Shown here: positions 51,718 through 64,000 of the stretch, one piece after another
How the letters are laid out: the number at the start of each line of letters is the position of its first letter
How positions within the stretch are numbered: the first letter of the stretch is position 1
NCBI GenBank assembly: GCA_019058315.1
Contig: JAHPZH010000001.1
Coordinates: forward strand, 1,137,432 to 1,201,431
Direction: 5' to 3'
Length of the DNA stretch: 64,000 nt
DNA from: Candidatus Helarchaeota archaeon
Lineage (GTDB): Archaea > Asgardarchaeota > Lokiarchaeia > Helarchaeales > RDOG01
Program-made: the position numbers and the translations under genes
Notes under the pieces: model-generated
Databases searched by the model: none
Told to the model about the DNA's origin: nothing
Seen by the model: the letters and a program-made list of their open reading frames with translations, nothing else

Positions 51718-54378
51718 TTATAATTCTTTTAAGAGTTTTAAAGCTTCTTCGTAATCTGGATCGATTTCAAGAGCTTTTTTCACGCATTCTTCGGATTCTG
51801 CCTTGTTATTTAGCTTTTTATGAGCAATTCCTAGGTAATACCAAGCCTCTTTAGATTGAGGACGGAATCCAACAGCTATTTTTAGATATTGCATTGCTTT
51901 TTGATGATTTCCTAATTCTAAATAAGATTTTCCACAATCAAACCGGGGAGAATAATCATCCTCTATATATATTGCCCTTTCAAAATATTCGATTGCCTCT
52001 TGGTATTTTTTAAGACCATTAAGGGCCCAACCAACACTGTGTAGTGCATGTTGATCCATTGGATTTAGTTCTATAGCTTTTTTACAATATTCATAAGCTT
52101 TTTCATATTGACCCCATTGACCATAAGTCCAACCAGTATTGTTCCACACTAGATTGCTATTAGGAAAAATTTTTAAAGCCTCTTCTCCAGACTCAGCAGA
52201 TTTTTCATAATCTTTTATTTTACAATAGGCTAAGATTAAATTGTTCCATGATGTTTCCCATTCGTTATTAAAGTCAATGGATTTTAGATACCACTCAATT
52301 TCCTTTTCATAATTACCCATTCGACGATATGCAAAACCAATATTATACATAATTCTATTATTATCCACACCTTCTGGATCTTTCCTTAGAATCTCCAGGT
52401 AATTTTCAATTGCTTTTTCAAATTTTTTCTGATTTAAATATTCATAAGCTAACTTATCTTGATAATAACGATCATCTGGATGGGATCTAACGTTTTCTAT
52501 TAAATCGTTTAATAATTGTTCATTTTTTGATTCTTCTAATTCCTCTAAAAGCCTTTTTACATCTTGGTTATCGGGCTGAAGTTCTAATAATTTTTTAAAT
52601 GATTCATAAGCTCCTCTAAAATCTCCACTTTCTTTCTGGGCAATCCCAAACATGTTCCAATATTCTGGATTGTCCTCATATTCGTCGGAATACCTTAATT
52701 CATCAAAACAATTTGTCATCCTTTCATAATCTTGTTTCAACTTAAACAGTGCAAATCCCATATCAAATAAAGATGGTTGATGCCAATATTGAAGTTCAAG
52801 AGCTTTTTCTAATTTCTCTTTGGCTTTTTCATACTTTCCTAACTTGTTATAAGCCCATCCAATTGAATGCCAAGAGTATGCGGCATTAGGATCAAGATCT
52901 ACCGCTTTTTGACAATACTCCAAAGTTTTATCATACTGTCCAATCTGACCAAGACTCCACCCTAAACCATTCCAAGCATCAGCCATTTGAGGATCAAGTT
53001 CGGTTGCTTTCTGAAAATAATTTGCTGCTTTTTGCCAATCTTTAATGTCAATATAATTATTTCCCTGAGTATACCATGTGTCTGCATCATTAGGATTCTC
53101 TTCCAATTCTTTCTCTTTTTCTCTAATATATTCTTTAGACCTTAAACTATTAAAGAATTCGTTAAGGAATTTATTGATGGTAGAGTCTTCTATATTAGTA
53201 GAATTTCTAAGCGTTCTTAATTCTTGAGTGCTTAAAATCAAATTATTTCCTAAAAAGATTATTGTTTCTTTTTTAGATTCTTCAACCATATTTATAATAG
53301 CTGCAGAAAATACTCCTGTCGTAATCTTATCCTTTATTTTTTTAAGGAATCCTAAATAGGCAGATTTAACCTCTGCTTTATCAATAATCAAATGTTGAAA
53401 TAACAAGGTCAAGACTGAGAGGGATATATCACTTAATAATGCAGTGGAGGAGAATTCATAATTTTTCTTGGAAATTACTTCAATGATTTTATCAATTGCT
53501 CTTTTTACTCCTTCATTTGATAATATTTTAGCAGCCCCTCTGATTATTTTCTCATCTTTCTCTTCAAGTGCCTCTATTAGCAGATTCTCAGCCTTTGGGG
53601 TCTTAGATCTCCCAAGTGCCCACATTGCCTCCCATTTTATGAATTCATCATCACTTTTGAGTAATTTAATCAAGGGATCAATTGCTCTTTCACCTCCGAT
53701 TTCCCCAAGAGCTTTTATAGTTCGTAATACTACATTTCTATTCTCATCTTCTAGCAATTTAAGCAAAGGTTCTATAGATTTGTTATCCCCAATCCTTCCA
53801 AGAGCACCTACTGCCTCTCGTCTAATAAAACTATTTTTATCCTTAAGGGACTCAGTTAAAGAATCCAAAACGTCAGGGAATTTCAGTTTTCCCAAAGTTT
53901 TGATAGCTTCTAATCTGACCATTTCTGATTTATCATTTAGAAATTTGGCGATATCTTTAGCAGATATTTGGGCATCTAATATACCTAGCGTCTTGATTGC
54001 TTCAATACGAACTTTTTCTTCAGGATCTTCTAATAATTTAATGAGAGGATCGATTGCCTTTGTAATACCATCTATATTTCGGATGGAAATAATGGCAGCA
54101 ATTCTTACATCAACATTTTTATCGTTTAATAAATCAATAAGATGATGTTCCTTCCCTTCTGGATTCCTTCCAATTGCAAAAGCCGCCTCTTCTCGAATTT
54201 TTTCATACTTATCTTTTGAAGCTTGAACTAAAGTTGAGAAAATTTTTTTTCCACCAATTTCCCCTAAGACTTTTAACGCTTCTTTACGAATAAGATAATT
54301 ATATTCATCAGAATTATTGTAAATTTCCTTTAATTTATCAGTATCTCTTTTTTCTTTCGATGACTTTACAACAAACAA
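51718..54378 (-). CDS. HEAT (PBS-lyase-like) repeat plus TPR repeat protein
   Basis: The N-terminal half has L.D....VR..A..ALG repeats; the C-terminal half has many W...G...Y..A....KA.EL.P repeats. Confidence 0.88.
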   Translation of the reverse strand: MFVVKSSKEKRDTDKLKEIYNNSDEYNYLIRKEALKVLGEIGGKKIFSTLVQASKDKYEKIREEAAFAIGRNPEGKEHHLIDLLNDKNVDVRIAAIISIRNIDGITKAIDPLIKLLEDPEEKVRIEAIKTLGILDAQISAKDIAKFLNDKSEMVRLEAIKTLGKLKFPDVLDSLTESLKDKNSFIRREAVGALGRIGDNKSIEPLLKLLEDENRNVVLRTIKALGEIGGERAIDPLIKLLKSDDEFIKWEAMWALGRSKTPKAENLLIEALEEKDEKIIRGAAKILSNEGVKRAIDKIIEVISKKNYEFSSTALLSDISLSVLTLLFQHLIIDKAEVKSAYLGFLKKIKDKITTGVFSAAIINMVEESKKETIIFLGNNLILSTQELRTLRNSTNIEDSTINKFLNEFFNSLRSKEYIREKEKELEENPNDADTWYTQGNNYIDIKDWQKAANYFQKATELDPQMADAWNGLGWSLGQIGQYDKTLEYCQKAVDLDPNAAYSWHSIGWAYNKLGKYEKAKEKLEKALELQYWHQPSLFDMGFALFKLKQDYERMTNCFDELRYSDEYEDNPEYWNMFGIAQKESGDFRGAYESFKKLLELQPDNQDVKRLLEELEESKNEQLLNDLIENVRSHPDDRYYQDKLAYEYLNQKKFEKAIENYLEILRKDPEGVDNNRIMYNIGFAYRRMGNYEKEIEWYLKSIDFNNEWETSWNNLILAYCKIKDYEKSAESGEEALKIFPNSNLVWNNTGWTYGQWGQYEKAYEYCKKAIELNPMDQHALHSVGWALNGLKKYQEAIEYFERAIYIEDDYSPRFDCGKSYLELGNHQKAMQYLKIAVGFRPQSKEAWYYLGIAHKKLNNKAESEECVKKALEIDPDYEEALKLLKEL

Positions 54379-54581: not shown

Positions 54582-57500
54582 ATGAATTTCGGTGAAACCT
54601 ACTTATTTTATTTAAAAAGTGCAGATGAGAAGTATTATCGAGTTTCTATCTATGAAGAAGAAGAAAGAACGTATTATTACAGACGAGAATACAAGAAATT
54701 TCGGTATTGTATGAGAATTTTATATGATAAAAAGAATGGAAACAGGTTTAAAAAACTCGATGTTGAAAAAGATAAACAAAATAAGGCAAGATCCCCATTT
54801 TATAAGCGTATTGGCAAACCTAGAGCAGGTTATGATCCTTATTATGTGTCATATTATGATAAATTTGAAGAACTAATCCCCGAAACCCCCGAACAATTTC
54901 TAGAAGTTCTAGGTTTAGAAGATTGCGAATATATTACCGAAGATGAATATGTTAATGCTATTTTTTCATCAATTAAAGATATAGTTGCCCCTGAAGACTA
55001 TGTAAAAAAAGAGAGACGATACCCACACGACTTAAAACGACTTTTAATGATAGCCATGGCAGGCGGCAGACCAACTCAGCGTAATTCGGCCATGAAACGA
55101 ATTTTAAAATGGAGCGATCAAGCTTCTGAGTCATATCATTTCCTAATAGAACATGGTTTGCAAGAAACTATGTTTGGGGCATTGATTTTAGCTACTAAAT
55201 ATAAGATTCTAGGTCTCGAAGATGTGGTAAAGAAAATTGCTGATTCAACAGACGAAGAAAGGGCTTGGATAGAAGGTTATAGCTTCAAATTTGCTCCAAT
55301 TTATGCTAATTTATATTTACATGCTATAACGAACGGTCAACAACCATACATTTGGAAAGACATAGAAAAAATAGCTAATTTAATGCCATCAGATTTTGAA
55401 AACGCTATAAATTTCTTTACAAGTTACACAAAAAAGCCAGATAATGCTTCCACTTATTCTTTTGGTTATGATTTTAAAAAGAAGTATAATGTTGATGACA
55501 ACAACTGGCTACTTATACCAGAATATTTGAAGAATAAAACCATGGATGAAAAATATGAACTTCTTTTAAATGTGGCTAATGGTATTAAATTGACTTATGA
55601 TTATTCAAAATTACATTTTTTATTCAGAACTCCATTTAAAGTTGCTGAGTTAGGCAGGTTTTTGGATCTTCTAGCTTTTATAATGCATCTTATAGACCGA
55701 GACAATTGTACTTGTGGAACTTGTGCTTATTTAAGGCGAAGAGCTAAGCGAGTATTGAAAGAATGGGGAAGGGAAAAGTCTGAAGATTATATTAAAACTG
55801 TAGCCTTATTTTTTGCGCTTCAACCAGAATGGGTTGCCCCATCTTATTATTCTGAACGTTATAGATGGCAATTATTTTACAATAGGCGTATTATTAGGGA
55901 TTTACTTTATGGTAAAAGTAAAAGATCGGGATGGAATGGTCAACTAGTCCGAGGAGACTCGCCCGATATTTTATCTGACGAGCATTGGCAGACTCGTGAA
56001 GAATTCTTCCCCGAATTGTGGAATGAATATCCAAATTATGTGTGGTGGATTTTAGGGAAGACCAAAGTTCCTGCAATTTTAGATTTTTGTTTAAGAGTGC
56101 TTAACCAATCAGATAAGGGTAAAGAATTTCTTAATTCATTAAATCTAAAAGATGTTGTTTCAACACTAGAAATACCATATAATAGAATCCAAGATTTCTT
56201 TTATGAAATTTTGATGAATAGATTAAAAGCGATTGATAAATTACCAGAAGATTTAATTAGTATATTAGTAGAAAGTAATGGACCAAGGGCTTGGGAGCTC
56301 GCTGTTCAGCTTGTAAAAGACAATAAAGCAGAATTAACAGAAGATCAATTCATAATGCTTTGTATAAAGCCCAATCAACGTTTAATAGACTTTTGTAGAG
56401 ATCGTTTAGTAGGATTAGACGAAAATAAAAAGAAAAATATGACAATTCGTATATTTGAGCTTATTAGCATTGAAGAAGATGTTTATAGAATCAATCTTGG
56501 GCTTATAAAGAGTTTAATTGAACGAGCTGAATTGCCAATCTCTGGAGAAACATTAGTTCCACTATTGAGAAGTAAAAATACATTAGGTCAAGAACTAGTA
56601 TCAAGTCTGATAGAAAAACAAGCTCCAAAAGCAGGATTTCTTACTAAAGAGGCTTATATTTCAACTTTTGAAAATTCAGAGGTTTCCTTGGATCTTTGCA
56701 AAATGGTGTCAAAATTTTTAGATAAGGATATAGAAACCTCAACTTTTTCACTAAAAGAAAGTATAGAAATTATTTCAAGCCTATTACAATGTCCTCATGA
56801 AGAAATATTCCTAATCTATGATAGATTATCTGAAAATTTGATATCAAGGACTCCTGAGGGTTCAAATTTATTGCTAGACGGTATAGTTAAAAACTTGGTT
56901 AGAAAGGAAATAAGTCAGAAATTAAGAGAAACATTCCTAGAATTATTAAGGAAGACAAATATTGATATTTGGAAATCAATAGATTCTGAAATTGTTAATA
57001 ATATATCGAAATTAGAAGATCCAGATATTGCGATAATTGGAAATTTAGTTCTAAAATATCAAACTGTAGCAATGCCTGCCAAAGAAACTATTGATGTAGT
57101 AGTGGGTTCGGAAGCCCTTGTAATAAGAAGATATTTAATAGATATATTAGATCTCATCTCTTCAAGGATTGATATAGAGATAAATATTTTAACACCAATA
57201 ATTGAAAGCGATTTTAATGATCTTTTTACTTGGACTTCAGAATATATTAAGAAAGCTGCAATTGATGTCTCAATAAAAACCAAGTATCTACGTAAAATTA
57301 TAGATTCACCTGTAGTTAGGGTTCAGGAATTTAGTTTTAATGTTTTAAAAGAAATTTACAAAGAAAAACTCCCTTATGATATGATTCTCCACTTACTTGA
57401 ACACCCTTCGGAATATGTTAGGGGAGCTATCGCTGAAGAAGTTTCTGATATTAAAGTTTTTGAAAAATTAGTTAATGAAGAACCAGATCTTTTTCTTAGA

Positions 57501-57698
57501 TATATTAAATCAGTAATTTATTTACCGAATAAGCTTGCAAAAGCGAAAGATCGTCTTTTTGAATTGATGATTGATTTTGCTAACTCCTCTCCAAAATATA
57601 AGAAGAATATCAAGGATATTCTCTTGAATGTGGGTGGAGGAGCTATTATTAAAGATAAGGAGCGTGCACTTAAAGCATTTGTTAAGATAACTGATTAA
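54582..57698 (+). CDS. Large alpha-helical (ARM/HEAT-like) retron-associated protein with a possible degenerate WGR-like N-terminus
   Basis: Long helical C-terminal region with IIESD, IIDSP and LLEHP repeat-like turns; N-terminal DEKYYRVSI..MRILY strands. First gene of the operon with SWIM and RT. Domain calls are from recollection only. Confidence 0.55.
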   Translation: MNFGETYLFYLKSADEKYYRVSIYEEEERTYYYRREYKKFRYCMRILYDKKNGNRFKKLDVEKDKQNKARSPFYKRIGKPRAGYDPYYVSYYDKFEELIPETPEQFLEVLGLEDCEYITEDEYVNAIFSSIKDIVAPEDYVKKERRYPHDLKRLLMIAMAGGRPTQRNSAMKRILKWSDQASESYHFLIEHGLQETMFGALILATKYKILGLEDVVKKIADSTDEERAWIEGYSFKFAPIYANLYLHAITNGQQPYIWKDIEKIANLMPSDFENAINFFTSYTKKPDNASTYSFGYDFKKKYNVDDNNWLLIPEYLKNKTMDEKYELLLNVANGIKLTYDYSKLHFLFRTPFKVAELGRFLDLLAFIMHLIDRDNCTCGTCAYLRRRAKRVLKEWGREKSEDYIKTVALFFALQPEWVAPSYYSERYRWQLFYNRRIIRDLLYGKSKRSGWNGQLVRGDSPDILSDEHWQTREEFFPELWNEYPNYVWWILGKTKVPAILDFCLRVLNQSDKGKEFLNSLNLKDVVSTLEIPYNRIQDFFYEILMNRLKAIDKLPEDLISILVESNGPRAWELAVQLVKDNKAELTEDQFIMLCIKPNQRLIDFCRDRLVGLDENKKKNMTIRIFELISIEEDVYRINLGLIKSLIERAELPISGETLVPLLRSKNTLGQELVSSLIEKQAPKAGFLTKEAYISTFENSEVSLDLCKMVSKFLDKDIETSTFSLKESIEIISSLLQCPHEEIFLIYDRLSENLISRTPEGSNLLLDGIVKNLVRKEISQKLRETFLELLRKTNIDIWKSIDSEIVNNISKLEDPDIAIIGNLVLKYQTVAMPAKETIDVVVGSEALVIRRYLIDILDLISSRIDIEINILTPIIESDFNDLFTWTSEYIKKAAIDVSIKTKYLRKIIDSPVVRVQEFSFNVLKEIYKEKLPYDMILHLLEHPSEYVRGAIAEEVSDIKVFEKLVNEEPDLFLRYIKSVIYLPNKLAKAKDRLFELMIDFANSSPKYKKNIKDILLNVGGGAIIKDKERALKAFVKITD

Positions 57699-57710
57699 GG
57701 AGTTAAAAAA

Positions 57711-59354
57711 ATGAGTATATCATACCAATTTAATTATGCAACACCTTCCACTTTTGTCGAAAGTGCAGATCTTACTTCATTAGTCTTTTCTACAGATTTA
57801 AATCGCCCTGAAAAAGTTTCATTCAAAGGACGTTTGAAAAACATCTTGCTTTATAGGGACGCAATGCTTGCATTACGTCAAGTTGTAGTTTCTGACCTTA
57901 GAACACCAGTTAAAGATAGATCAGCTTACCTTGAGTGGGAAGGAAAATTTGTTGAACAACTCGCAAGAGAACGCTTAGGTAAAGTAGAGTCTATGAGGGA
58001 AGAAGTATTAAAAGATATAAAATTGCTAGAGCAAGAAAGAAAAGATATCGAAGCTTGGGAAAAAGAGAATTGGAAACAATATTACAAATTAGAAAGACCA
58101 TTTTGGAAATTCATTCAAAATAGGGATAAGGATTTGTGGTGGGTTTTAGATCCTGTAATTTCAGTTCAACCTGATATCGTATCATTTGAGGCTTTTTCTA
58201 AAGATGAATCTACATATGCCAGCTTGAGTGTTAATAGAGATGAATTTGTGATGGAAGAAGAACCGACGCTTGGAACCACTAATATTGACTTTAGTAAAAG
58301 GCTGGCTGATGAATTTCTTAGAATTAGAACAGACAATCCATTAGATTTATCTATTGCTCCAGAAGGGTTTACAGTTGAAACTGGAGAAAGACCAGCTTAT
58401 TTAGAAAAGAAAATAGATTTACCCGAGAGTTGGGTTAGAGGTTTTCTCCAAGTATCCTCAGCTTCAGCATTACCTGGTTATGATTTCAACCTCTCAAAAG
58501 TTGATGTTTATGTTATTTGTAGCTATTTAAGACGAAGAAGAGCTCGTTGGTCTCCTCGCTCTCTACGATGGGAATTAAAACCAAAATATAACATAAGAGT
58601 TGTATTTGAGCCTTGGGAAGAGGTAATTGAACTATCTGCTAAATATTTTGGTCCCGAACCTCAAATAATTCGCACATGGGGTAGAAGAAGGTTATTTCTA
58701 CTTGAAGGCTTAATCCCACATGCCAAAAAGTTTAGAGTACATTTACTGGGTAAAGGACTTCCAGCTTTTTACATCGCAGAAATGCCCGGTATGGTCTTTA
58801 CCTTGGGATTATCAGGTTGGGTTGCAAAAGACTGGTCTGGTGGAGCTGTTTTTAATGCATTATCAGGATTTATCGGAGATACAGTAGTAAAAGATATTGT
58901 TACAAAATTTAAGGAAAATAGACAATACGAGATAGATAAATTACCAAGCGAATTTAAAATTGATCAAAAAGATATAAATTCAACAATTGGCTATCTTTAT
59001 CGCCATGGTAGAGCTTATTATGACTTAGTTAGCTCCAAGATTAGATATAGAGAATTATCTCAAATCCCCTTCCCGAAACACTTGACAGAACCTTCACAAC
59101 TTGAAAAAGATGCTCGGAAATTCATGCCAAGTCTAAAAAATTTCAGAGTTAAACATAACCCAGATAAATCGATCGATGCAACTGCCAAGATGAGAGTAAA
59201 GGATAAAATAAAAGAAATTTCCTTGACAATGTCAGGAGATGGGCAGGTTAAAAAAGCAGATTGTCATTGTAGGGCATTTCAACGCAAAAAACTAACTGGA
59301 GGACCCTGCATTCATTTATTAGCCCTTCAATTCAAAACATTAGATTTGGATTAA
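57711..59354 (+). CDS. SWIM zinc-finger protein, retron-associated
   Basis: C-terminal CHC-x12-CIH (CxC-xn-CxH), LDPVISV..D..SFEAFSKDES and LPESWVRGF motifs; AGGAG RBS. Confidence 0.85.
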   Translation: MSISYQFNYATPSTFVESADLTSLVFSTDLNRPEKVSFKGRLKNILLYRDAMLALRQVVVSDLRTPVKDRSAYLEWEGKFVEQLARERLGKVESMREEVLKDIKLLEQERKDIEAWEKENWKQYYKLERPFWKFIQNRDKDLWWVLDPVISVQPDIVSFEAFSKDESTYASLSVNRDEFVMEEEPTLGTTNIDFSKRLADEFLRIRTDNPLDLSIAPEGFTVETGERPAYLEKKIDLPESWVRGFLQVSSASALPGYDFNLSKVDVYVICSYLRRRRARWSPRSLRWELKPKYNIRVVFEPWEEVIELSAKYFGPEPQIIRTWGRRRLFLLEGLIPHAKKFRVHLLGKGLPAFYIAEMPGMVFTLGLSGWVAKDWSGGAVFNALSGFIGDTVVKDIVTKFKENRQYEIDKLPSEFKIDQKDINSTIGYLYRHGRAYYDLVSSKIRYRELSQIPFPKHLTEPSQLEKDARKFMPSLKNFRVKHNPDKSIDATAKMRVKDKIKEISLTMSGDGQVKKADCHCRAFQRKKLTGGPCIHLLALQFKTLDLD

Positions 59355-59359
59355 ATAGA

Positions 59360-60748
59360 GTGGTGAAAATGGGTAGAAGAGAAGAATTATACGAAGAAAT
59401 TAAGAAATCATCCAAAGAAGTTGTAACTCTAAGAGAAATGATAAAATTTGGATTTTGGCCAAAAGATATTCCACTACCAGAAATAAATATGGAAATGGTA
59501 GAAAGAAAGAAGGAAGTAATTAAAAAAATTAGGGAATTAAACAAAGAATTGGTAAGAGAACGAACTTTTGATGATGTAGTGAAAGAAATTCGAAAGGAAA
59601 GAATGGCTGAATCTAGAAAAAGAAAAAAATTACGACGTGAAGAAAAAAAGAGATTATACGAAGAACGTAAAGCTGCTTGGGCCAAAAAGCGAGAGGAAGA
59701 AATAGTTCATGTTGGGAATAAGTATTCTGGAATGTTACATAAAAACGAGACCAATATAGAAGCTCTCAAACGTTTTAATTTACCCATAATTCAAAATCAT
59801 ATTGATTTAATTAAAGAATTGCAGATTGATCTCTCTACATTACGATGGCTAACATATCATAGAGATGTAGTTAGTATTTCCCATTATGTTCAATTTGAGG
59901 TTCCCAAGAAATCAGGTGGAATGAGAACAATTTCTGCACCGAAACCTAAAATTGCTGCTGCTCAAAGATATATTTTTGAAAATATTTTATGTAACATACC
60001 ATCATCTAATTGTGCTCATGGTTTTATACAGAAAAGATCAATATTAACTAATTCTAAAGTTCATATTGAAAAAAATCCAAATTTAATTATTAACATAGAT
60101 TTAAAGGATTTTTTTCCATCAATTACGTTTATTAGAGTTAGAGGTTTATTTCAAAAATTAGGCTATTCAGGACAGATCGCCACATTATTAGCAATGCTTT
60201 GCACGGAACCCCATAGAAAAGAAGTTCAAGTAGATGGCGATAAATATTATGTGGCTCTTGGAGATAGAGTGTTACCTCAAGGTGCATGCACAAGTCCAGC
60301 CATCACTAACGTAATATGCTGGCGGCTTGATTCTAGATTAAATGGCTTGGCACGTTCAAAAGGATTTGGCTATTCACGTTATGCTGATGATATAACCTTC
60401 TCTATTCCAAATAAAGAATTCAGGAGTGAAATTGGTAAATTTGTAAATACAGTCAATAAAATTATAAAAGATGAAGGTTTTAGGATTAATAAAAAGAAGA
60501 TTAGAATCCTTGGTAAACATAGAAGACAAGAAATTACTGGATTAGCAGTAAATGAAGGTTACCCGACCATATCCCGTAAATGGCTTCGAAAGCTTAAAGC
60601 CATTTTATATAATTGTAAGACCAAAGGAATAGAAAGTCAAAATATATCCTATCAAACATTACAGGGAATGGTCTCTTTCGTTAATATGGTATCGCCGAAT
60701 AAGGCAAATAAATTTAGAGAGGTATTAAGTAAGATTAAACCAAGTTAA
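59360..60748 (+). CDS. Retron-type reverse transcriptase with charged N-terminal extension
   Basis: PKKSGGMRTI, AHGF, NSKVH (region X, NAxxH-like), DLKDFFPSI, LPQGACTSP, YADD and ITGL (region Y, VTG-like). No maturase, endonuclease or Cas1 domain. Confidence 0.92.
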   Translation: MVKMGRREELYEEIKKSSKEVVTLREMIKFGFWPKDIPLPEINMEMVERKKEVIKKIRELNKELVRERTFDDVVKEIRKERMAESRKRKKLRREEKKRLYEERKAAWAKKREEEIVHVGNKYSGMLHKNETNIEALKRFNLPIIQNHIDLIKELQIDLSTLRWLTYHRDVVSISHYVQFEVPKKSGGMRTISAPKPKIAAAQRYIFENILCNIPSSNCAHGFIQKRSILTNSKVHIEKNPNLIINIDLKDFFPSITFIRVRGLFQKLGYSGQIATLLAMLCTEPHRKEVQVDGDKYYVALGDRVLPQGACTSPAITNVICWRLDSRLNGLARSKGFGYSRYADDITFSIPNKEFRSEIGKFVNTVNKIIKDEGFRINKKKIRILGKHRRQEITGLAVNEGYPTISRKWLRKLKAILYNCKTKGIESQNISYQTLQGMVSFVNMVSPNKANKFREVLSKIKPS

Positions 60749-60762
60749 TTATATAGGAAAGT

Positions 60763-60959
60763 TGGAAACCTTGGCTATTAGTTGCGGTGTCACGCCGTGC
60801 ATGCCGGACCGTTTACCATCCTTCACCGGTCCTTTCATCACTGCCGGCACTATCGACACTATCACAATTTGCGAAGCCAACCTAAGAGGTTCAAATTGCG
60901 ATAGTGTCACGTGCCGTTGAGTAGAAAGTCCCGATCTTGGACTTGATGCAAGGTTTCCA
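60763..60959 (+). ncRNA. Retron-like msr-msd ncRNA, copy 1
   Basis: Terminal 11-bp IR TGGAAACCTTG/CAAGGTTTCCA, unpaired G at 60774, internal hairpins and a 17-bp stem at 60855-60908. Begins 15 nt after the RT stop. Confidence 0.75.
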
Positions 60960-60985
60960 TTACTTTCTTTCAAAGATTTTAAATA

Positions 60986-60993
60986 TTTATAGA
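60986..60993 (+). promoter_or_regulatory. TATA-like box for ncRNA copy 2
   Basis: TTTATAGA about 30 nt upstream of the copy 2 5' end. Confidence 0.45.
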
Positions 60994-61018
60994 AAATTTG
61001 CAAACCTAAAATAATTAG

Positions 61019-61211
61019 AAGACCTTGGCTATTAGTTGCGGTGTTACGCCGTGCATGCCGGACCGTTTACCATCCTTCACCGGTCCTTTCGTCACTGCCG
61101 GCACTATCGACCCTATCGAAATTTGCGAAGCCAACCTGAGAGGTTCAAATTCCGATAGGGTCACGTGCCGTTGAGTAGAAAGTCCCGATCTTGGACTTGT
61201 TGCAAGGTCTT
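61019..61211 (+). ncRNA. Retron-like msr-msd ncRNA, copy 2
   Basis: Terminal 9-bp IR AAGACCTTG/CAAGGTCTT, unpaired G at 61028 and variable stem at 61109-61162. Confidence 0.75.
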
Positions 61212-61218
61212 ACCTCTC

Positions 61219-61226
61219 TTTTTTTT
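61219..61226 (+). terminator. Oligo-T terminator after ncRNA copy 2
   Basis: T8 tract shortly after the closing stem. Confidence 0.55.
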
Positions 61227-61236
61227 AAAAAGATTA

Positions 61237-61250
61237 CGAAAATTATATAT
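61237..61250 (+). promoter_or_regulatory. BRE-TATA-like promoter for ncRNA copy 3
   Basis: CGAAAA-TTATATAT centred about 29 nt upstream of the copy 3 5' end. Confidence 0.55.
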
Positions 61251-61274
61251 ACATAAAAATAGACAAAAATAACT

Positions 61275-61471
61275 GGAAGATCTTGGCTATTAGTTGCGGT
61301 GTCACGCCGTGCATGCCGGACCGTTTACCATCCTTCACCGGTCCTTTCATCACTGCCGGCACTATTGACCATAGTATATTTTGCGAAGCCAACCTAAAAG
61401 GTTCAAAATACACTATGGTCACGTGCCGTTGAGTAGAAAGTCCCGATCTTGGACTTGTTGCAAGGTCTTCC
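61275..61471 (+). ncRNA. Retron-like msr-msd ncRNA, copy 3
   Basis: Terminal 11-bp IR GGAAGATCTTG/CAAGGTCTTCC (one U-G pair), unpaired G at 61286 and variable stem at 61367-61420. Confidence 0.75.
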
Positions 61472-61472
61472 C

Positions 61473-61479
61473 TTTTTTT
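61473..61479 (+). terminator. Oligo-T terminator after ncRNA copy 3
   Basis: T7 tract directly after the closing stem. Confidence 0.55.
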
Positions 61480-61603
61480 AATCTATCCACGATTAAATTT
61501 TATTAATTTTCAAAATTAATTAAAAAACTACTAATTTTTAAATCAAAATCAGGAGTAAATTAAGAAATATGGAAGAAAAAGTAAACGTTATTAACCCATA
61601 TAT

Positions 61604-62653
61604 CTAAGATGGGGCATATTTCCTTATTTTATTCGAAAATTTTTTAATTTTATTAATAGAGCTTGGATAATTTACAATCAAAGTTTTTTCAATAATTTCT
61701 AATATATCCTTATTAATTTTTTTACCAAATTTTTTTAAATCAGCATCTGAAACGGTTTCAGTATTTATGATATTTAGCAATTCTACAATTCTTTCAAATA
61801 ATAAATTAATTTCATCAACATATACTGCCCTGGCTTGGAAAGTGTCTAAATCCTTTATTTTTTTCACTAAATTATTAAAATATTTATTATTTTTTATACC
61901 AATTAGGGTATTTTTTTCAAGATCAATAATCACAGAATCTATTACAAAAAGCCCAAGAAGATCTTGAGGGACTCCAACAATATCAACTAGGGTCTCAGCA
62001 AGAGTGTTTGCCCAATAATTTGTTTTTAAAATGCGATTTGGTGTAAACAATTTTAAAGAATCAATTAATAATTTAATCAGAGCTCGATCGCCAGAGATAA
62101 CAATTCGTCTTCCAATAAATATAGAATAAATCACTTTTGCAAAATTTTTCTTTAAAGTATTAAATAAAAAACTAAGGCTTATTTGTCTTGGTTTAATATT
62201 ATATTTTTCTTTAAAGTATGCGATTTTAGACTGATCTATTTCCTCATCCCCCATTCTTTCATTTATTATTTGAATAGTTTTGTCTACATATTTTTCAAAA
62301 GGTTTAAGATACCTATAATTGATTAATTCAGAATTTATATGCTTATCCTTATATATATTCAAATATTGCTCACTTAATTGACTTAGAACAATTTTTAAAG
62401 CATCATCATCGTCATTCTGATCTGCAATAATTATCAGATTAAGGTCATGTTTAATATCAATTGAACGATAGAGGATTTTTGATTTGCCTAATATTATCGC
62501 TTCTACCTCATCACTACTTATATTTTTAGCAATCATAGAAACCGCTGATAAAAATGAACCAAATAAACTTGGTTGCATGGAAATTTCAGTGTCAAAACTC
62601 CTTGAAAATATACAAACAGAACGGTTATTTATTAAAACCATTTTTATAGGCAA
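61604..62653 (-). CDS. Longin-like plus DENN/folliculin-like domain protein
   Basis: The N-terminus LIN..SVCIFSRSF...LFGSFLSAV..I has a longin pattern. The C-terminal VIYSIFIGRRIVISG..LLIDSLKLFTP, DIVGV and VIIDLEKN resemble the cDENN core. Confidence 0.65.
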   Translation of the reverse strand: MPIKMVLINNRSVCIFSRSFDTEISMQPSLFGSFLSAVSMIAKNISSDEVEAIILGKSKILYRSIDIKHDLNLIIIADQNDDDDALKIVLSQLSEQYLNIYKDKHINSELINYRYLKPFEKYVDKTIQIINERMGDEEIDQSKIAYFKEKYNIKPRQISLSFLFNTLKKNFAKVIYSIFIGRRIVISGDRALIKLLIDSLKLFTPNRILKTNYWANTLAETLVDIVGVPQDLLGLFVIDSVIIDLEKNTLIGIKNNKYFNNLVKKIKDLDTFQARAVYVDEINLLFERIVELLNIINTETVSDADLKKFGKKINKDILEIIEKTLIVNYPSSINKIKKFSNKIRKYAPS

Positions 62654-62885
62654 TTATAATTCCTCTAATAAAACAAAGCCTAATTAATGTTTTATTTGTT
62701 CTTTTTCAGTTGGTTAACTTAATTTATACTTTTTAAATTTCAATATTTCTAATCTTTCATTGATTATAAATAATTTGAAAAACAAATTCTTTTTTTTCAA
62801 TTTATCACAAAACAGACAAGAATTTTTTTGAATGGTATCTTGATTGTTTTTCATAAAAAATAAAATTTTTAAAAAGTGAGAAATT

Positions 62886-63410
62886 ATGCCAATAGTATCA
62901 ATTAAGAAAAAAGATAAGGTTATTGAACCCGAGATAGATCCTACTGCATGGATTTCAAAGCATGCAGTAATAGTTGGGAAGGTTTCAATAGGTCCAGGAA
63001 CTGTAGTTTATCAAGGCGCAGTAATAAGAGGGGATTTTGCAGCTGTCAAAATCGGTGCGAATAATGTTATTCAAGATGATGCAGTCATTAATACGGCAGA
63101 TGGTTTTAAAACAAAAATTGGTGATAACAACTTAATTGGTTTTAAAGCTATTGTTCATGGAGCTACAGTTGGTAATAACGCAGTAGTTGGAATTGGTTCG
63201 ACAATTATGATCGGTGCAAAAATTGGAGATGACGCATTAATAGGCGCAGGTGCGTTTATTGGAAACAATAAAGTTGTTCCTCCAGGCAAATTCTGGATTG
63301 GCACTCCTGCAGTAGAGAAAGGTGAAAATAAACAAGGTGCTATGTGGGAGATTGGCCGAAAATCTTGGAGAGAAAATGTAGAAAAGCGTTTCAAAGGAAC
63401 AGAAGCATAA
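62886..63410 (+). CDS. Gamma-carbonic anhydrase-like (YrdA/CaiE/PaaY) hexapeptide-repeat protein
   Basis: IRGD, IQD and hexapeptide repeats, GTPA. Confidence 0.88.
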   Translation: MPIVSIKKKDKVIEPEIDPTAWISKHAVIVGKVSIGPGTVVYQGAVIRGDFAAVKIGANNVIQDDAVINTADGFKTKIGDNNLIGFKAIVHGATVGNNAVVGIGSTIMIGAKIGDDALIGAGAFIGNNKVVPPGKFWIGTPAVEKGENKQGAMWEIGRKSWRENVEKRFKGTEA

Positions 63411-63608
63411 AAATATATCTTCTTAATAACTTAAACTTATATTTTTTTACCTTTTTTAAAATCTAAATCCAAAAATCGTTGAAAGAAAATTGATTTAAGG
63501 GATTTTCATAAATAAAATTTCTTCTATATTATAATAGAAAATATTTTCAAAGCGATTTACAAATAAAAATTAAAAAATAAAGTCTACTATTTAAAATTTT
63601 AAATTTCA

Positions 63609-63878
63609 ATGGAGAAGTTAGATTTGCCAGCTTTATACAAAAGTAAAGAAAAAGGAAAGATGCTTTTTTTACAAAGGGATAGATGCAAGGCTTGTAATCT
63701 TTGCATTAATATCTGTGCAGTAAAAGCAATAATACCAGATACAGAACTAAATAGCAGAGCAGGTTACCCACCAGCACCAAACCCTGAATCTAAGGGATGT
63801 ACATACTGTGGAACTTGCGAATTAGTATGTCCTGATTTCGCTATATATATTACTGATTTGAGTTTATTGGAGGAATGA
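63609..63878 (+). CDS. 2[4Fe-4S] ferredoxin, delta subunit of a 2-oxoacid:ferredoxin oxidoreductase
   Basis: CKACNLCINIC and CTYCGTCELVCPDFAI; lies upstream of an alpha subunit. Confidence 0.88.
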   Translation: MEKLDLPALYKSKEKGKMLFLQRDRCKACNLCINICAVKAIIPDTELNSRAGYPPAPNPESKGCTYCGTCELVCPDFAIYITDLSLLEE

Positions 63879-63879
63879 T

Positions 63880-64000
63880 ATGTCAAAATATAAAGATTAT
63901 GATGGAAAACCTGGAAAAACGGTTTTAATGGGTAATTCGGCCATGGCTGAAGGATGTATTGCAGGAGGGTGTCGATTTTTTGCAGGATATCCAATAACTC
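63880..64000 (+). CDS. 2-oxoacid:ferredoxin oxidoreductase alpha subunit, 3'-truncated (not in the ORF track)
   Basis: GGAGG RBS, then MSKYKDYDGKPGKTVLMGNSAMAEGCIAGGCRFFAGYPIT (GN.A.A.G and YPITP motifs). Confidence 0.88.
   Translation, partial: MSKYKDYDGKPGKTVLMGNSAMAEGCIAGGCRFFAGYPIT

Follow-up and report, generated by a model that had tools for sequence, protein, structure and literature searches.

Retrons are described as systems in which one reverse transcriptase (RT) is combined with one template RNA. Type XIII retrons are bacterial defense elements. To our knowledge, the retron that was discovered first (Mx162) belongs to type XIII, a class with no known mechanism, and function of a retron in an archaeon has yet to be demonstrated. 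Type XIII contains Mx162, Mx65, Sa163 and Ne144 (PMC7736814), termed Retron-Mxa1, Mxa2, Sau1 and Nex2 respectively, with RTs of retron clade 10 (Mestre et al. 2020). The RTs of this type contain the motifs NAxxH, VTG and YADD. They have a SWIM protein as a partner, and many, but not all, have a WGR-like/HEAT-ARM repeat protein (cluster 216 and its relatives) encoded ahead. The priming G of a retron is located inside, or immediately 3' of, the inner end of the msr arm, usually in the context TAGC and otherwise in the contexts CAGA, CAGC, GAGC or ACGC (Simon et al., PMC6868368). Retrons account for 4% of the archaeal RTs in one survey (PMC8632793). Tandem arrays of retron-Eco1 ncRNAs, termed multitrons, have been engineered, and each unit of a multitron gives its own RT-DNA from an internal priming site (10.1101/2023.07.17.549397); the words 'natural', 'naturally', 'native' and 'in nature' do not occur in the text of that paper. 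UG27 RT systems have ncRNA arrays that are copied into short cDNA hairpins, according to the passages on these arrays in the report (10.64898/2026.09.22.753630).

The locus described here is located in a 64,000-nucleotide stretch of DNA, which is analyzed as a whole and is called the window. It resembles the type XIII retrons in the clade of its RT, in its SWIM and WGR/HEAT-ARM partners, and in the plan of its ncRNA, which has a closing a1/a2 stem, a G-C at the inner end of this stem, short msr hairpins and one long msd hairpin. It differs from the known type XIII retrons in that its host is an Asgard archaeon, its ncRNA follows the RT gene at the 3' end of the operon, and this ncRNA occurs as three copies whose msd stems differ. 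The candidate priming context is UGGC in the window vs TAGC, CAGC or GAGC in the published retrons, and the units are about 197 nt long vs the 241-nt transcript of Mx162 (PMC6868368). Like the multitrons (10.1101/2023.07.17.549397), the window has tandem msr-msd units that would be served by one RT, but the multitrons are synthetic, are made from a type II-A retron and carry editing donors, whereas the array in the window is natural, is conserved across species, and varies only within a stem of fixed length. Like the UG27 systems, as the passages on them describe these, the window has a natural tandem array of structured ncRNAs beside an RT and two accessory proteins. According to the same passages, however, UG27 has a class 2 Unknown-Group RT, which is mostly phage-encoded and has other conserved motifs; a closing a1/a2 stem or a branching G is not described in these passages (10.64898/2026.09.22.753630). 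The UG27 proteins show no relationship to the SWIM and HEAT proteins in the window. Descriptions of natural retron ncRNA arrays or of Asgard retrons are not found in the literature searched. The sequence comparison supports the view that the novelty here is a type XIII retron in an archaeon, with its template RNA downstream of the RT and in triplicate.

The operon in the window is, as judged from its genes, a type XIII retron (WGR/HEAT, SWIM and RT) of an Asgard (Promethearchaeota) archaeon. RT_XIII gives the best match to the window RT among the 51 RT models of PADLOC. This RT contains NSKVH at 231, YADD at 341 and ITG at 392, so that YADD is present and the other two motifs are conservative variants of those of clade 10. 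The SWIM partner is also present, as is the WGR/HEAT-ARM protein ahead of it, which has no match in Pfam (Table 1). The sole SSU rRNA fragment of the genome scores 752 bits with the archaeal model vs 574 bits with the bacterial model. The two named closest homologues of the RT, which are 90% and 48% identical to it, are both from Promethearchaeota metagenome-assembled genomes (MAGs), and the contig of the 90% identical homologue (locus L009) has a hexapeptide-transferase gene downstream of the array in common with the window. A quick FastTree analysis of 93 RTs, with a biased amino-acid composition and a best-hit set as the bacterial sample, separates 13 Asgard RTs from 80 bacterial RTs by a branch with 99% support. 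A 349-aa open reading frame (61604-62653, − strand) with no match in Pfam or PADLOC is located between the array and the hexapeptide-transferase gene (62886-63410) in the window. It represents an insertion or deletion difference between close relatives, because the transferase gene directly follows the array in L009. Just upstream of the retron operon, a divergent 886-aa protein with HEAT and TPR repeats (51718-54378, − strand) is encoded. It partially matches the type XIII HEAT-ARM model PDLC02919 (1.7e-23), and may be either an unrelated repeat protein or a further accessory protein.

The region 60763-61471 consists of three GC-rich units of about 197 nt each, which are separated by AT-rich spacers of about 60 nt. 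It starts 15 nt past the stop codon of the RT gene on the same strand. Tandem Repeats Finder (TRF) reports this region as a single array with a period of 258, 2.8 copies and 88% matches, and the units are spaced by 254 and 258 nt. The GC content of the units is 49-52% vs 31% for the window. When the entire genome (5.8 Mb) is searched, three copies of the unit are found, all of them in this array. A coding repeat is rejected, because spacings of 254 and 258 nt break the reading frame (254 is not a multiple of 3). The features of the locus are summarized in Table 1.

Table 1. Features of the type XIII retron locus, numbered from the first nucleotide of the window
Feature	Position	Strand	Evidence or remark
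WGR/HEAT-ARM accessory protein, type XIII retron, 1038 aa	54582..57698	+	PADLOC WGR_XIII 4.1e-47, HEAT-ARM_XIII 8.2e-15
SWIM zinc-finger protein, signature type XIII partner, 547 aa	57711..59354	+	PADLOC SWIM_XIII 6.8e-172; Pfam SWIM 6.7e-05, residues 512-539
Retron reverse transcriptase, type XIII, 462 aa	59360..60748	+	PADLOC RT_XIII 7.8e-164; Pfam RVT_1 1.6e-21
ncRNA unit 1 (msr-msd)	60763..60959	+	Fold z -6.9 vs shuffles; 236.5 bits with covariance model
Unit 1, closing stem	5' arm 60763-60773, 3' arm 60949-60959	+	11 bp, all Watson-Crick
Unit 1, junction	candidate priming G 60774, C 60775, opposing G 60948	+	Read from sequence
Unit 1, msr hairpins	about 60781-60800 and 60806-60832	+	Predicted fold
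Unit 1, long msd hairpin	60843-60916; variable upper stem 60855-60871 / 60892-60908	+	Predicted fold
Unit 1, small 3' hairpin	60928-60942	+	Predicted fold
ncRNA unit 2	61019..61211	+	229.4 bits with covariance model
Unit 2, parts	5' arm 61019-61027, candidate priming G 61028, long hairpin 61097-61170, 3' arm 61203-61211	+	Closing stem of 9 bp
T8 run after unit 2	61219..61226	+	Possible archaeal termination signal, inferred from sequence only
ncRNA unit 3	61275..61471	+	Fold z -6.4 vs shuffles; 239.2 bits with covariance model
Unit 3, arms	5' arm 61275-61285, candidate priming G 61286, 3' arm 61461-61471	+	11 bp including one U-G wobble
Unit 3, long hairpin	61355-61428; upper stem 61366-61383 / 61404-61421	+	Predicted fold
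T7 run after unit 3	61473..61479	+	Possible archaeal array terminator, inferred from sequence only

All three units are closed by inverted repeats of their own with arms of 9-11 bp, as claimed by the earlier note, which also correctly reported a compensatory change from A-U to G-C. This change is located between the closing stem of unit 1 and those of units 2 and 3, and the same comparison reveals a second compensated pair (G-C to A-U) and one change from C-G to U-G. Short inverted repeats are frequent per se in AT-rich DNA (177 pairs in 3.5 kb), and the signal that is not expected by chance is therefore the presence of these repeats in the same register in every unit, together with their covariation across genomes. 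This covariation is seen in an alignment of 66 units fitted to the covariance model (see below), in which many sequences are related to each other. In this alignment, 88.4% of the cells pair, a share that falls to 56% on shuffling and to 37-47% with slid partners. Of the 65 pairs, 62 are changed on both sides, and the covariation score is 0.70 vs 0.18 after shuffling and about 0.1 with slid partners. All ten pairs of the closing helix covary. Double changes are observed at seven of the ten closing pairs when six units are aligned by MAFFT alone. When the 16 complete Asgard units are placed in a register that is anchored at the junction and needs no alignment, several pair types are found at stem positions 3-7, and stem positions 1-6 are paired in all 16 units (one spurious extra row being discounted). 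The long hairpin consists of a 17-bp upper stem and a lower stem, and it covaries as well, as expected for a predicted msd hairpin.

The minimum free energy structure predicted for the entire array joins the 5' arm of unit 2 to the 3' arm of unit 3, whereas in the centroid fold each unit folds separately. The arms of these two units are cross-compatible, and because units 2 and 3 can pair with each other in a read-through transcript, it may matter whether the units are transcribed or processed separately. T runs comparable to that after unit 3 also follow the last units of three other Asgard loci (L014, L016 and L040).

The covariance model R1, which was built from six Asgard units only, matches 50 of the 80 bacterial type XIII loci that were fetched as the best-hit set with the RT alignment. 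The matches are on the strand of the RT gene and upstream of it, and the matched loci include those of Mx162-group myxobacteria, with Myxococcaceae, Archangium and Hyalangium among the hosts. The bacterial matches are mostly located immediately upstream of the RT gene and in some cases upstream of the accessory genes. None of the 50 matched bacterial loci has a unit downstream of the RT gene, and the ncRNA follows the RT gene in all nine Asgard loci with a unit. These matches indicate that the units are homologous to the msr-msd RNA of type XIII, and that this RNA has been shifted in Asgard archaea to the operon's 3' end. Thus, the ncRNA in the window is contiguous with the RT gene as in other type XIII retrons, as recognized from the Asgard-built model and from the shared covarying structure, but it is downstream and not upstream of this gene. 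The interpretation of the repeats as retron RNA, which had been proposed from the window alone, holds, because the upstream genes fit the type XIII models of PADLOC and the units are homologous to the bacterial type XIII ncRNAs. In six bacterial loci (L048, L121, L100, L096, L090 and L073), the ncRNA is located 1-5 kb upstream of the RT gene, probably before the accessory genes, indicating that the place of the ncRNA in the type XIII operon varies. Rfam contains a retron msr family (RF00170). Scanning of 56000-64000 with Rfam release 15 gives no family at E ≤ 1, and the units are outside any curated RNA family.

When R1 is applied with its filters off to the remaining Asgard loci, only one extra unit, which is weak (L017, E 0.015), is detected. 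Searches for direct repeats and BLAST searches with the msr recover two units that are missed by R1, which are the first units of L014 and L040. Locus L018 (RT_XIII 1.5e-158) has no unit downstream of the RT gene. A 120-nt periodic repeat in L018, read by eye on the opposite strand, resembles a convergent TPR-like repeat gene rather than an RNA array. The contigs of L011 and L012 (closest long-contig RT relative, 57% identical) stop 210-230 nt past the RT gene, and no unit is recognized in these contig-end regions (7417-7625 of L011 and 5114-5345 of L012). It is possible that these contigs end at an assembly break in a repeat array.

A G followed by a C is located directly inside the 5' arm, and a G precedes the 3' arm, in all three units of the window. 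In the 66-unit alignment, the column of this first G contains G in 49 units, and the next column contains C in 60 units. In all 16 complete Asgard units, the 5' arm is followed by UG-G-C and the 3' arm is immediately preceded by G. Clean bacterial examples have the same junction, in which the stem is followed by G and C, and a G is followed by the stem. An automatic finder of the best stem reports a G after the arm in 40 of 68 cases, and this figure is an undercount, because the finder often locks on the outer part of interrupted bacterial stems. The G is located at the position published for the priming G and in an xxGC context, and the tetranucleotide of the window, UGGC, is absent from the published variants. 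These results support the conclusion that the flagged G is the counterpart of the conserved G-C that follows the 5' arm in the bacterial type XIII ncRNAs, in the position of a priming G.

The earlier note described this G as unpaired in all copies. The G is indeed present at 60774, 61028 and 61286, but its unpaired state depends on the model. Both RNAfold and RNAalifold pair G60773-G60774-C60775 with GCC at 60803-60805, forming a 3-bp helix. Covariation is uninformative on this helix, because it is invariant among the Asgard units. In the 66 units, the two pairs that involve the junction G and C are kept in 95.9% of the cells, and both partners are changed in some cases.

Copying of a G-U pair from RNA into cDNA yields a C-A mismatch, and therefore a stem that also folds as DNA should avoid G-U pairs. 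Among the 66 units, G-U pairs account for 1.2% of the pairs in the upper part of the long hairpin and 2.3% in its middle part vs 10% for the closing stem, 13% for the small 3' hairpin and 17-19% for the msr helices. The Fisher p value of this contrast is about 1e-37, which is overstated because the sequences are related. The depletion of G-U pairs in the long hairpin suggests that this hairpin is the msd and that the 5' hairpins are RNA-only, and the presence of G-U pairs in the msr identifies the + strand as the transcribed strand. The near absence of G-U pairs fits the long hairpin having to fold as cDNA as well.

It is likely from these sequence features that this locus is a type XIII retron of an Asgard archaeon with three complete msr-msd templates, each of which would prime its own msDNA from its G. 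By analogy with characterized retrons, the one RT would then probably make three different small DNAs. Each unit would fold independently, and its a1/a2 stem would set the G-C at its inner end opposite the second conserved G. The RT would bind the nearly identical msr hairpins of each unit, as expected from homology with the characterized retrons, use the 2'-OH of G60774, G61028 or G61286 as its primer, and reverse transcribe the 3' part of the unit, in which the long hairpin lies, to give a branched msDNA. The outcome would be three msDNAs with a common scaffold and loop and with different upper-stem sequences. Priming at the flagged G, production of msDNA and a role in defense, if any, would follow from the same analogy.

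The three units of the window differ at 27 columns, 21 of which are paired columns that form 12 pairs. In seven of these 12 pairs, which are mostly located in the upper 17-bp stem, both partners have changed and pairing is still maintained in each of the three units. The spacers are unalignable between the units, while the units are about 90% alike. L009 and L010, the RTs of which are 90% and 74% identical to the window RT respectively, have at least two units each after the RT gene. At the 34 columns of the upper stem, unit 3 of the window is identical to the last unit of L009 (34/34), vs only 22-23 matches of this stem to units 1 and 2 of the window. The upper stem of L010 unit 2 matches the type of window unit 3 at 24 columns vs 13-15, and matches its neighbor, L010 unit 1, at 18 columns, whereas that of L010 unit 1 is closest to the first unit of L009 (28/34). 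Outside the upper stem, the units group by genome: units 2 and 3 of the window match at 138 of 143 columns, and units 1 and 2 of L010 match at 109 of 128 columns, vs 75-81% identity to the units of other genomes. Because the upper stems match by array position across genomes, the duplication is older than the split of the lineages of the window, L009 and L010. The parts that face the RT evolve together while the stems are kept distinct, and this pattern is hard to reconcile with decaying duplicates. The msr sequence shared within a genome could result from gene conversion rather than from selection on every copy.

When the msr copies are counted per locus, arrays of two to three units are found in six of the nine Asgard loci vs five of the 47 bacterial loci. 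Among the Asgard loci, the window, L014 and L040 have three units each and L016 has two units. L009 and L010 have at least two units each, because the array of L009 is interrupted by an N gap and the contig of L010 ends inside unit 2. L013, L017 and L019 have a single unit. The bacterial arrays, all of which are upstream of the RT gene, have three units in L092 (2257-3061) and L053 (5220-5804), and two units in L044 (2943-3409), L066 (1026-1518) and L067 (5331-5765). Their hosts are Bacteroidota (three-unit array of L092), Saprospiraceae, Verrucomicrobiales, Acidobacteriota and Pyrinomonadaceae. When the units of six arrays (L092, L044, L053, L066, L014 and L016) are compared side by side, the msr is nearly identical between units, whereas the upper msd stems have different sequences but are perfectly paired and about equal in length, and the apical loop is largely conserved. 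In the four bacterial arrays among them, the upper stems are entirely different between units at about the same length. The claim that the copies are maintained and not decaying is thus borne out by the compensatory differences, by the orthologous units at 90% and 74% RT identity, by the diverged spacers and by the recurrence of arrays.

The N gap of L009 is a run of 100 N (1437-1536) inside the array with overlapping sequence on both sides, so that the copy number is two or three. Assembly of MAGs may often collapse or break tandem ncRNA arrays. In L040 (G266:C21), the type XIII RT gene (about 972-2442, − strand) is broken into two adjacent frames with internal stops, which cover profile positions 11-259 and 255-430, and three well-formed ncRNA units follow it. 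This split gene could be a frameshifted pseudogene, the result of a sequencing error or a programmed shift.

Upkeep of all copies does not require that all of them are copied. It is conceivable that one unit only, most likely unit 1, which is next to the RT stop codon, acts as a primer-template, and that the others persist by gene conversion or as RNAs with a spare, decoy or regulatory role, which bind the RT or effectors but are not copied. The grouping of the units by genome outside the upper stem is what gene conversion could produce, the arms of units 2 and 3 are not orthogonal, and one unit suffices in three of the nine Asgard loci and 42 of the 47 bacterial loci. However, gene conversion would homogenize the upper stems as well, whereas these stems stay distinct, paired, equal in length and orthologous by position. 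In addition, the closing stem, the G-C and the opposing G are kept in every unit, and the depletion of G-U pairs in the long hairpin holds across the array members. Use of one template only is therefore considered unlikely.

It is also conceivable, with a rather small probability, that the units are genuine type XIII ncRNAs that are not constitutively reverse transcribed in this archaeal lineage, and that they act as RNA scaffolds or are copied only on infection. A precedent is a type VI retron, which is reported not to make msDNA at high levels before infection (10.1101/2025.10.22.683967), and no report of archaeal msDNA is found in the literature searched. On the other hand, the RT retains YADD and the retron motifs, the near absence of G-U pairs in the long hairpin points to a constraint that acts on the complementary DNA strand, and all Asgard units conserve the context of the priming G. 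A recent, now decaying segmental triplication, or a terminal repeat of a mobile element such as a MITE, unrelated to priming in either case, would account for the tandem layout and the identity of about 90% between units, but is hardly credible, and a MITE, a transposon end or a decaying duplicate is ruled out by the copy number (three copies in the genome, at one locus), by the compensatory nature of the changes and by the conservation of the units between unalignable spacers, with orthologous units present in genomes at 74-90% RT identity.

If, as we consider likely, the three units are three complete templates of one RT, multiplexed retrons may exist naturally in Asgard archaea and in a minority of bacteria. 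In such retrons, the RT would make two to three msDNAs, the stems of which are kept different over speciation, and it is tempting to speculate, although this is rather doubtful, that these msDNAs represent distinct DNA baits that widen the range of the viral DNA-modifying or DNA-degrading activities sensed. More modestly, the differences in the stems and arms might serve only to let neighboring units fold independently. Template arrays have so far been reported as an engineering device, the multitrons, and nature appears to do likewise, with two to three templates per RT that have long been kept. The tolerance of the RT for differing stems in natural units may serve multiplexed DNA production. 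Because the variation in the array is confined to a stem of fixed length in the predicted DNA product, it gives a handle on what the stem of type XIII msDNA is read for. These results place a complete and apparently long-resident retron lineage in the Asgard archaea, where retron biology is unexplored.
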